Shown: positions 178 through 278 of the stretch, piece by piece
Numbering within the stretch: the stretch's first letter is position 1
How the letters are laid out: each line of letters opens with the position of its first letter
Assembly (NCBI RefSeq): GCF_003334815.1
Contig: NZ_QOWO01000093.1
From: Escherichia coli
GTDB taxonomy: Bacteria > Pseudomonadota > Gammaproteobacteria > Enterobacterales > Enterobacteriaceae
Length of the DNA: 1,796 nucleotides
Reading direction: 5' to 3' (one strand)
Notes under the pieces: model-generated
Told to the model about the DNA's origin: nothing
Database searches by the model: none
What the model saw: only the letters and a program-made list of their open reading frames with translations
Translations under genes and position numbers: made by a program

Positions 178-257
178 CTATCTTGTTATCTTGTTATCTT
201 GTTATCTTATTATCTTATTATCTTATTATCTTATTATCTTATTATCTTGTTATCTTA
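178..257 (+). repeat. Tandem array of ten 8-bp iterons TTATCTT[G/A]; putative centromere-like site (parC/parS-type) upstream of the par operon
   Basis: Direct read: CTATCTTG at 178-185, then perfect units at 186, 194 (G-variant), 202, 210, 218, 226, 234 (A-variant), 242 (G) and 250 (A), with a degenerate copy to about 266. Head-to-tail with no spacers. The same unit recurs downstream of the operon. Confidence 0.88.
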
Positions 258-278
258 ATTAATCTATAAATCAAATAC

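Follow-up and report, generated by a model that had tools for sequence, protein, structure and literature searches.

The octamer arrays flanking parAB on an Escherichia coli plasmid correspond to parS as published for the IncI1/pESBL partition system, and their G/A order is probably repeat drift

Introduction

Two arrays of 8-bp direct repeats lie on either side of a pair of partition genes in the stretch of Escherichia coli plasmid DNA analysed here (1,796 nucleotides of contig NZ_QOWO01000093.1; hereafter the window). The locus raises the question of whether a repeat period of 8 bp is unusual for the type of protein that would bind it, and whether the order in which two unit variants, here called G and A units, follow each other in the upstream array is a conserved design or a passing state of a repeat. 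We addressed both by comparing the window with published partition systems and with related loci in plasmids and metagenomes.

Results

Two 8-bp arrays and an inverted unit flank parAB

The elements of the window follow one another in the order polymerase 3' end, array, two palindromes, parA, parB, second array and a small element with inverted repeats at its ends. The features up to the second array are:

4-153: 3' end of an umuC/impB-like Y-family polymerase gene
175-254, + strand: upstream parS array of 10 direct octamers, counterpart of the pESBL '7-DR' site
279-301: palindrome O1, TTAACAACTTA T TAAGTTGTTAA, with perfect 11-nt arms; putative operator
341-371: palindrome O2, ATATTAAGTTGTTAA C TTAACAACTTAATAT, whose end lies 9 nt ahead of the parA ATG; putative ParB operator
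381-1007, + strand: parA, 208-aa Walker-type partition ATPase, type Ib (from the ORF and NF041546)
1004-1306, + strand: parB, 100-aa centromere-binding protein with a GTG start
1302-1309, - strand: one inverted octamer (on the + strand, GATAACAC) that overlaps the stop codon of parB
1311-1358, + strand: downstream parS array of six perfect TTGTTATC octamers, homologous to the pESBL downstream array

The motif TTRTTATC occurs 15 times in the window, every time within one of the two arrays, versus 0.23 ± 0.48 occurrences expected by chance (200 dinucleotide-preserving shuffles), confirming that both 8-bp arrays are real and far above chance. Tandem Repeats Finder reports a period of 8 for the upstream array (179-257, 9.9 copies, 95% match, score 130) and for the downstream array (1310-1360, 6.4 copies, 100% match, score 102). 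In the published register, the upstream array (175-254) consists of one TTGCTATC, three TTGTTATC, five TTATTATC and one TTGTTATC, where TTGTTATC is the G unit and TTATTATC the A unit. An earlier note on this DNA, made from the sequence alone, had described the order G G G A A A A A G A, and this order is reproduced in the TTATCTTR register from position 178, in which the units are CTATCTTG, two TTATCTTG, five TTATCTTA, one TTATCTTG and one TTATCTTA. The published register reveals that the last 'A' unit is a register artefact, its final base belonging to the flank. Similarly, of the span 178-266 that had been assigned to the array, the repeat part extends as far as 254/257, whereas 258-266 (ATTAATCTA) is flanking sequence. 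In the downstream array, the five G units (TTATCTTG, 1314-1353) were found as described; the terminal octamer TTATCTTC (1354-1361) was read correctly, but its status as a 'C-variant' is again an artefact of the register.

The inverted octamer at 1302-1309, absent from the earlier note, abuts the downstream array and thus creates an inverted junction. The same kind of junction is present in pESBL, and many other IncI plasmids carry two inverted units. In the pESBL locus (L003, minus strand, about 175-300), the inverted part has grown to 4-5 units, and the direct array runs right up to the inverted repeat of a blaTEM-1-carrying Tn3, indicating that the transposon inserted at or in the centromere array.

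ParA contains a Walker A motif (KGGVGKS, residues 9-15) and is devoid of an N-terminal DNA-binding extension, i.e. it is a small Walker-type ParA of the kind that characterises type Ib systems. It matches NF041546 (ParA_partition) over its full length (E 1e-45; 155.8 bits, which is below the curated cut-off of 180) and the ParA-like PHROG 164 (E 4.6e-41). The GTG start of parB overlaps the TGA stop of parA by 4 nt (GTGA, 1004-1007), suggesting that translation of the two genes is coupled. An Rfam search of the window gave no matches.

On the far side of the downstream array lies an element of ~286 bp (about 1419-1704, within 1416-1707) with 47-nt imperfect inverted repeats that are 79% complementary. 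Its ends (GGGGTCCGC...CACGCTAAG) resemble the terminal repeat of the pESBL Tn3 (GGGGTCTGACGC...CACGTTAAG); it has no long ORF, and we saw no clear target-site duplication. In other plasmids, the element by itself has matches of about 94-97% identity that are independent of the par locus, and judged from its sequence it looks like a Tn3-family-derived miniature (MITE-like) insertion. From 1705 on, the window matches a 'hypothetical protein' in thousands of plasmids.

The window is the pESBL par locus

Poidevin et al. (2020, Genes 11:1207; PMC7602700) identified the par locus of pESBL, an IncI plasmid from E. coli O104:H4, and showed that an octamer with the consensus GATAACAA (the complement of TTGTTATC) is parS. 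In gel shifts with ParB-containing cell extracts rather than purified protein, seven complexes formed on seven direct octamers and eight on four direct plus four inverted octamers, and complex C1 was weaker than C2, suggesting cooperativity; in the authors' interpretation, each octamer could be bound by one ParB, probably in a cooperative manner (PMC7602700). The par locus stabilised a mini-F lacking sopABC, and GFP-ParB foci formed only when pESBL was present, while deletion of par from pESBL caused little loss of plasmid retention (PMC7602700). The effect is small because of compensation by conjugation and other systems (PMC7602700).

The accessions ParA WP_000587689.1 and ParB WP_001245884.1 (Hp7/ParB of pESBL) are annotated both in the window's plasmid and in pESBL-EA11, and by tblastn ParA and ParB of the window are 100% identical to the pESBL-type proteins. 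The published parB cloning primers oYo1092 and oYo1094 match the window at 1005-1029 and 1281-1306, respectively, and the published upstream primer matches as well. The sequences bordering the upstream array (CCATAATATTG... and ...TATCTTAATTAA) are the same as in the 7DR-F gel-shift probe (PMC7602700 supplement) and in pESBL DNA. [quoted passage not shown] Because the accessions are the same and primers and probe match, we conclude that the window is the pESBL par locus. The window is also 100% identical to plasmid RCS85_pI of E. coli ECOR 3, in which the locus lies next to a Y-family polymerase gene; this plasmid is typed as MOBP/MPF_I and is, therefore, IncI-like.

The earlier proposal that the arrays are centromere-type repeats for a small ParB is borne out, since the same locus has been published as pESBL parS (PMC7602700). 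The arrays are thus already known: they serve the IncI1/pESBL type Ib partition system as parS. Because the window is this locus, the 8-bp unit and the occupancy by one complex per unit are already published for the identical protein, and the 8-bp unit and the G/A pattern add nothing beyond the 2020 description. It is important to note that the link of the arrays to function depends on this one paper (PMC7602700). The par locus is present in at least 1,423 PLSDB plasmids, including 693 from Klebsiella, 436 from Escherichia, 164 from Salmonella and 57 from Shigella.

Two unit-like palindromes precede parA

The half-sites of O1 and O2, the two palindromes between the upstream array and parA, resemble the parS unit. 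O2 includes TTGTTAAC (349-356), which is one mismatch away from the unit, and its core is nearly invariant where ParB is 83-100% identical; at the O2 site, some relatives have an exact TTGTTATC, and Pantoea ananatis loci have 0-2 additional TTATTATC units. O1 has kept its position among relatives while its sequence has changed. By analogy with the OF operator of TP228, O1 and O2 are probably ParB operators for autoregulation, a question on which PMC7602700 takes no position. A scan for consensus promoters returned 6 sites versus 4.8 expected, and we claim no promoter. Whether the upstream array serves partition or expression was left open by Poidevin et al. (PMC7602700).

ParB is predicted to be an RHH protein

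ParB of pESBL was described as having no recognisable DNA-binding motif, and the RHH fold is unmentioned (PMC7602700). Domain searches with ParB against Pfam, NCBIfam and PHROGs gave no match, a sequence-profile search of the PDB gave nothing relevant, and Foldseek with the ParB model gave no matches. Comparison of ParB with ParG of TP228 by hhalign yielded a probability of 1.2%, which is not significant, although the predicted ribbon does align with the ParG ribbon; these data do not place ParB in the ParG family by sequence homology.

An alignment of 22 homologues (56-89% identity) revealed an invariant N-terminal MRNR...E..FI.GG, a variable linker, an invariant K38-A-K-P-V-S-x-S45 corresponding to the predicted ribbon, and conserved helical regions. 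AlphaFold models of full-length ParB (pLDDT 74) contain a disordered N-terminal tail, an extended segment and three helices, and residues 36-100 modelled separately (pLDDT 86) again contain the extended segment followed by three helices. The predicted layout is, therefore, a disordered tail, then a ribbon (K38-S45) followed by two helices, with an additional helix at the C-terminus. Based on these structure predictions, which give moderate support, ParB is likely to have an RHH fold, and a small centromere-binding protein with such a predicted fold is what type Ib systems possess. Across the family, ParB does not vary in its first 20 residues or in the predicted ribbon, and the linker is variable; ParA, at 86-100% identity, is far better conserved than ParB, at 52-100% (L018-L033 and metagenome loci).

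The 8-bp period has precedents and is kept across the family

The earlier note had considered that an 8-bp unit might be undescribed and would imply a different spacing of the protein on the DNA. Both parts of this argument fall away: an octamer parS is published for pESBL (PMC7602700), and ParG of TP228 has an 8-bp period as well, one dimer binding per 4-bp box and 4-bp spacers separating the boxes, which gives 8 bp centre to centre (PMC3130281). In pCXC100, ParB binds nine unspaced 9-bp repeats with a footprint period of 9.07 and 8.96 bp (PMC3074162), and omega binds 7-bp heptads (PMC3074162, PMC3130281). A unit of 8 bp is thus inside the known 7-9 bp range of RHH centromere proteins. Eight base pairs correspond to a helical rotation of ~274 degrees, so that successive dimers would wind round the helix and, after four units (32 bp, about 3 turns), would again lie on roughly the same face, an arrangement that would be comparable to the one described for omega.

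ParB homologues were found across Enterobacterales. The distant loci were found via the protein and not via the repeat, and all of them retain 8-bp arrays. Relatives in which ParB is 52-72% identical have these arrays on both sides of parAB or downstream, with TTAGTATC, TTACTATC, TTGTTATG and TTATTAAG as units:

Citrobacter farmeri (ParB 57%): degenerate 8-bp array upstream; TTGTTATC x4-8 downstream
Pantoea stewartii (ParB 58%): CATCTTRG-type units upstream; TTATTATC downstream
Pantoea ananatis (ParB 71%): TTATTAAG x4-8 downstream
Pantoea sp. (ParB 60%): TTAGTATC x3-4, followed by inverted units
Atlantibacter hermannii (ParB 61%): two downstream arrays, TTGTTATG and TTACTATC, in inverted orientation

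Family-wide, the unit is about TTRNTAWS, with positions 3 and 4 of TTGTTATC the most variable; accordingly, the base that separates the G and A units of the window is among the two least constrained. In close relatives, variants expanded into runs affect positions 1, 3, 4, 5 and 6 and occasionally 7 and 8, and only position 2 is invariant. A model with an ATCTT core and a 3-nt variable spacer, in which the G/A base would fall in the spacer, was rejected as a clean description because of this distribution of variants.

The order of G and A units is not conserved

We compared the arrays of 12 PLSDB plasmids spread across the ranking, pESBL and 120 metagenome loci containing TTGTTATC x3, about half of which carry parAB. 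Nine reference-database plasmid records (the window's plasmid, pESBL and seven from PLSDB) encode a 100% identical ParB, and their arrays are all different: in the same record order, the upstream arrays have 10, 7, 6, 5, 4, 6, 9, 7 and 7 units and the downstream arrays 6, 10, 14, 5, 5, 7, 6, 13 and 13 units. With the metagenome loci included, the 28 loci with an identical ParB have 27 configurations, with 4-10 upstream and 5-17 downstream units; of these loci, 19 are metagenome assemblies that were fished with three perfect G units, introducing an ascertainment bias. Short-read metagenome assembly may also miscount repeats, but the complete plasmid records vary in the same way.

Among the loci with an identical ParB, the A variant TTATTATC is present in the upstream array of only the window and L070 and in the downstream array of L011, L012 (ten consecutive units), L049 and L059. 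Where ParB is 89% identical (L060), six A units make up the entire downstream array, and the Pantoea stewartii plasmids L021-L023 also have downstream arrays consisting entirely of TTATTATC. Other variants that form runs are TTGCTATC, CTGTTATC, TTGTTGTC (eleven consecutive units in L086) and TTGTCATC. Overall, identical units are neighbours in 179 pairs, compared with 148.6 ± 5.9 after shuffling (0 of 5000 shuffles reached the observed value), and neighbouring pairs of the same variant number 59, compared with 38.9 ± 3.1. Because variants in contiguous runs are the signature of in-register duplication and deletion, the divergence by slippage that the earlier note had suggested fits both the variant runs and the different unit numbers among identical-ParB plasmids.

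By contrast, the comparison across plasmids argues against the G/A pattern, or the asymmetry between the two arrays, as a designed feature, given the 27 configurations in 28 identical-ParB loci and the A runs on either side of parAB. The pattern is not conserved, and counts and variants are arbitrary, an outcome that had been set beforehand as speaking against it. From this distribution, we infer that the G/A order of the window is ordinary repeat drift, its neutrality being read from sequence comparison. G and A units may differ in how strongly they bind ParB. Since A units can make up an entire downstream array in related plasmids (L060, L021-L023), it is unlikely that they lack function.

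No ParA or ParB homologue is present at 60 of the 120 metagenome loci with TTGTTATC x3 (within L034-L153, e.g. L040, L057 and L126), and no ORF with a Walker A motif was found within 2.5 kb. These loci are on contigs with a GC content of 22-58% and mostly have 3-5 units, with a few having 10-16 and a few being contig-end fragments; they are probably unrelated short tandem repeats, contig-end fragments or truncated par loci. A Salmonella Infantis IncFIB plasmid (L017) carries an orphan parB (1521-1850; protein 92% identical); its parA is replaced by unrelated or IS-like sequence, and of its downstream array only a decayed remnant (GATAACAGCCTTGTTATCTTGTTAAG) is left.

Discussion

Our analysis supports, with high confidence, that the arrays are the parS of a type Ib ParABS system shared by IncI1 and many Klebsiella IncF/IncR plasmids and that the order of their G and A units is drift. 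In the mechanism that we propose, ParB, with 100 aa, a disordered tail and a predicted RHH domain, would occupy the octamers, one per unit and probably cooperatively; the binding entity would be a dimer, and this as well as the binding geometry is our extrapolation. Once coated by ParB, the arrays would be positioned as cargo over the nucleoid by ParA, the Walker ATPase of 208 aa. The palindromes shortly ahead of parA, with their unit-like half-sites, would probably allow ParB to regulate its own operon. The arrays behave as hypervariable minisatellites in which units are gained, lost and homogenised in register, with replication slippage or unequal recombination as the presumed cause of the turnover, and point variants such as TTATTATC would consequently spread as runs. 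The G G G A A A A A G of the window's plasmid would then be one transient state and no conserved design.

How much of the octamer ParB reads is a separate matter. ParB may possibly read a shorter core (about 4-5 bp) every 8 bp, or bind as a dimer of dimers on 16 bp, with the octamer as the tiling unit; we give this reading some credence but consider it doubtful, and it would refine rather than contradict the explanation by an octamer parS. RHH ribbons typically touch few bases, as in ParG, which reads a 4-bp box and a spacer (PMC3130281), and positions 3 and 4 of TTGTTATC are the most variable in the family-wide unit (TTRNTAWS). Also in favour are the weakness of C1 relative to C2 in gel shifts (PMC7602700), the single site of pCXC100 ParB, which needs 18 bp at a period of 9 bp (PMC3074162), and the arrays of L129 and L011, in which two variants alternate with a 16-bp period. 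However, gel shifts of probes with 7 and 8 units gave 7 and 8 complexes, respectively, which amounts to one step per octamer (PMC7602700), and the variants of close relatives, found at all positions but 2, do not separate cleanly into core and spacer.

Two further readings would give the variant composition a role. If G and A units differed in affinity for ParB, the mixed upstream array could be tuned unlike the pure downstream array, for example with one array acting mainly as operator and the other as centromere in the manner of the parH and OF subsites of TP228. The subsites of TP228 indeed differ in their affinity for ParG depending on box and spacer sequence (PMC3130281), the upstream array is ~120 bp from parA and could influence transcription, and its role in partition or expression is the point on which PMC7602700 does not decide. 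We nevertheless regard such tuning as very unlikely, because two identical-ParB loci have A runs upstream and four have them downstream, some downstream arrays consist of A units throughout (L060, L021-L023), pESBL does not contain a single A unit, and most arrays are pure G, with upstream arrays containing instead CTGTTATC, TTGCTATC or TTGTTGTC in no fixed order. Alternatively, the parS arrays could be contingency-like loci whose state is a selected, fast-evolving trait and not neutral drift, which we consider unlikely. If true, turnover of variants (G, A, TTGCTATC, TTGTTGTC and others) would change the occupancy of the upstream array by ParB and retune par expression, or else alter centromere strength or the partition incompatibility of co-resident IncI and IncF plasmids that share ParB. 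As for replication iterons bound by a Rep initiator and controlling copy number, a reading to which the heading of the earlier note points, the resemblance is purely formal, namely short tandem direct repeats on a plasmid, and typical iterons are 17-22 bp. The window and 6 kb on either side contain no rep gene, repA of pESBL (36525-37556) is about 13 kb away from its par locus (49994-50919), the arrays flank parAB in every relative irrespective of replicon (IncI1, IncI-gamma/K1, IncFII, IncFIA/FIB, IncR), and the published ParB gel shifts and foci explain them (PMC7602700); the probability of this reading is negligible.

With parS drift as the preferred explanation, what the present analysis adds is small: the hypervariable array content among plasmids with an identical ParB, the prediction of ParB as an RHH protein, and the persistence of the 8-bp period down to 52% ParB identity while ParA remains at least 86% identical. 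Many of the enterobacterial plasmids with this par locus (at least 1,423) carry ESBL or carbapenemase genes, and the centromere is, therefore, relevant to plasmid persistence and to curing and incompatibility strategies.

Comparison with known systems

TP228 ParF/ParG is likewise type Ib; its small centromere-binding protein has an RHH domain preceded by a flexible N-terminal tail and loads as one dimer on each repeat at an 8-bp period (4-bp ACTC box and 4-bp AT-rich spacer). Direct and inverted boxes are mixed, and centromere and operator form separate clusters, both ahead of the operon (PMC3130281). The TP228 system differs in that ParG and ParB have no detectable sequence homology (hhalign, 1.2%), the recognition sequence is another, both clusters are upstream with no downstream array, and the IncI1 ParB model has the extra C-terminal helix. 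In pSM19035 delta/omega and pCXC100 ParA/ParB, RHH proteins cooperatively coat contiguous, unspaced short direct or inverted repeats, as proposed here; in these systems, the period is 7 bp (omega) or 9 bp (pCXC100) instead of 8, the hosts are Gram-positive and the sequences are unrelated. The type Ib system par2 of pB171 (ParA, ParB, parC1, parC2) shares the placement of arrays upstream and downstream of parAB and was cited as an architectural parallel by Poidevin et al. (PMC7602700). In Pantoea ananatis contigs (L024-L026, 1-880), a gene for a parM/stbA-like actin-type ATPase is divergent from parA, and this double par locus with a shared repeat-rich intergenic region has the layout described for pB171 (par1/par2).

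The pESBL system shares with the window the ParA and ParB accessions, the gene order, the adjoining Y-family polymerase gene, the octamer consensus GATAACAA/TTGTTATC, the arrays on both sides of parAB and the identical flanks of the upstream array, and array content is the only difference. The window's arrays include A units, which the published pESBL probes lack. Upstream, pESBL has 7 units, one of them TTGTTGTC and none an A variant, whereas the window has 10 units, five of them A variants; downstream, pESBL has 4-5 inverted and 10 direct units with TTGTCATC variants, ending at the Tn3 inverted repeat, whereas the window has one inverted and six direct units.
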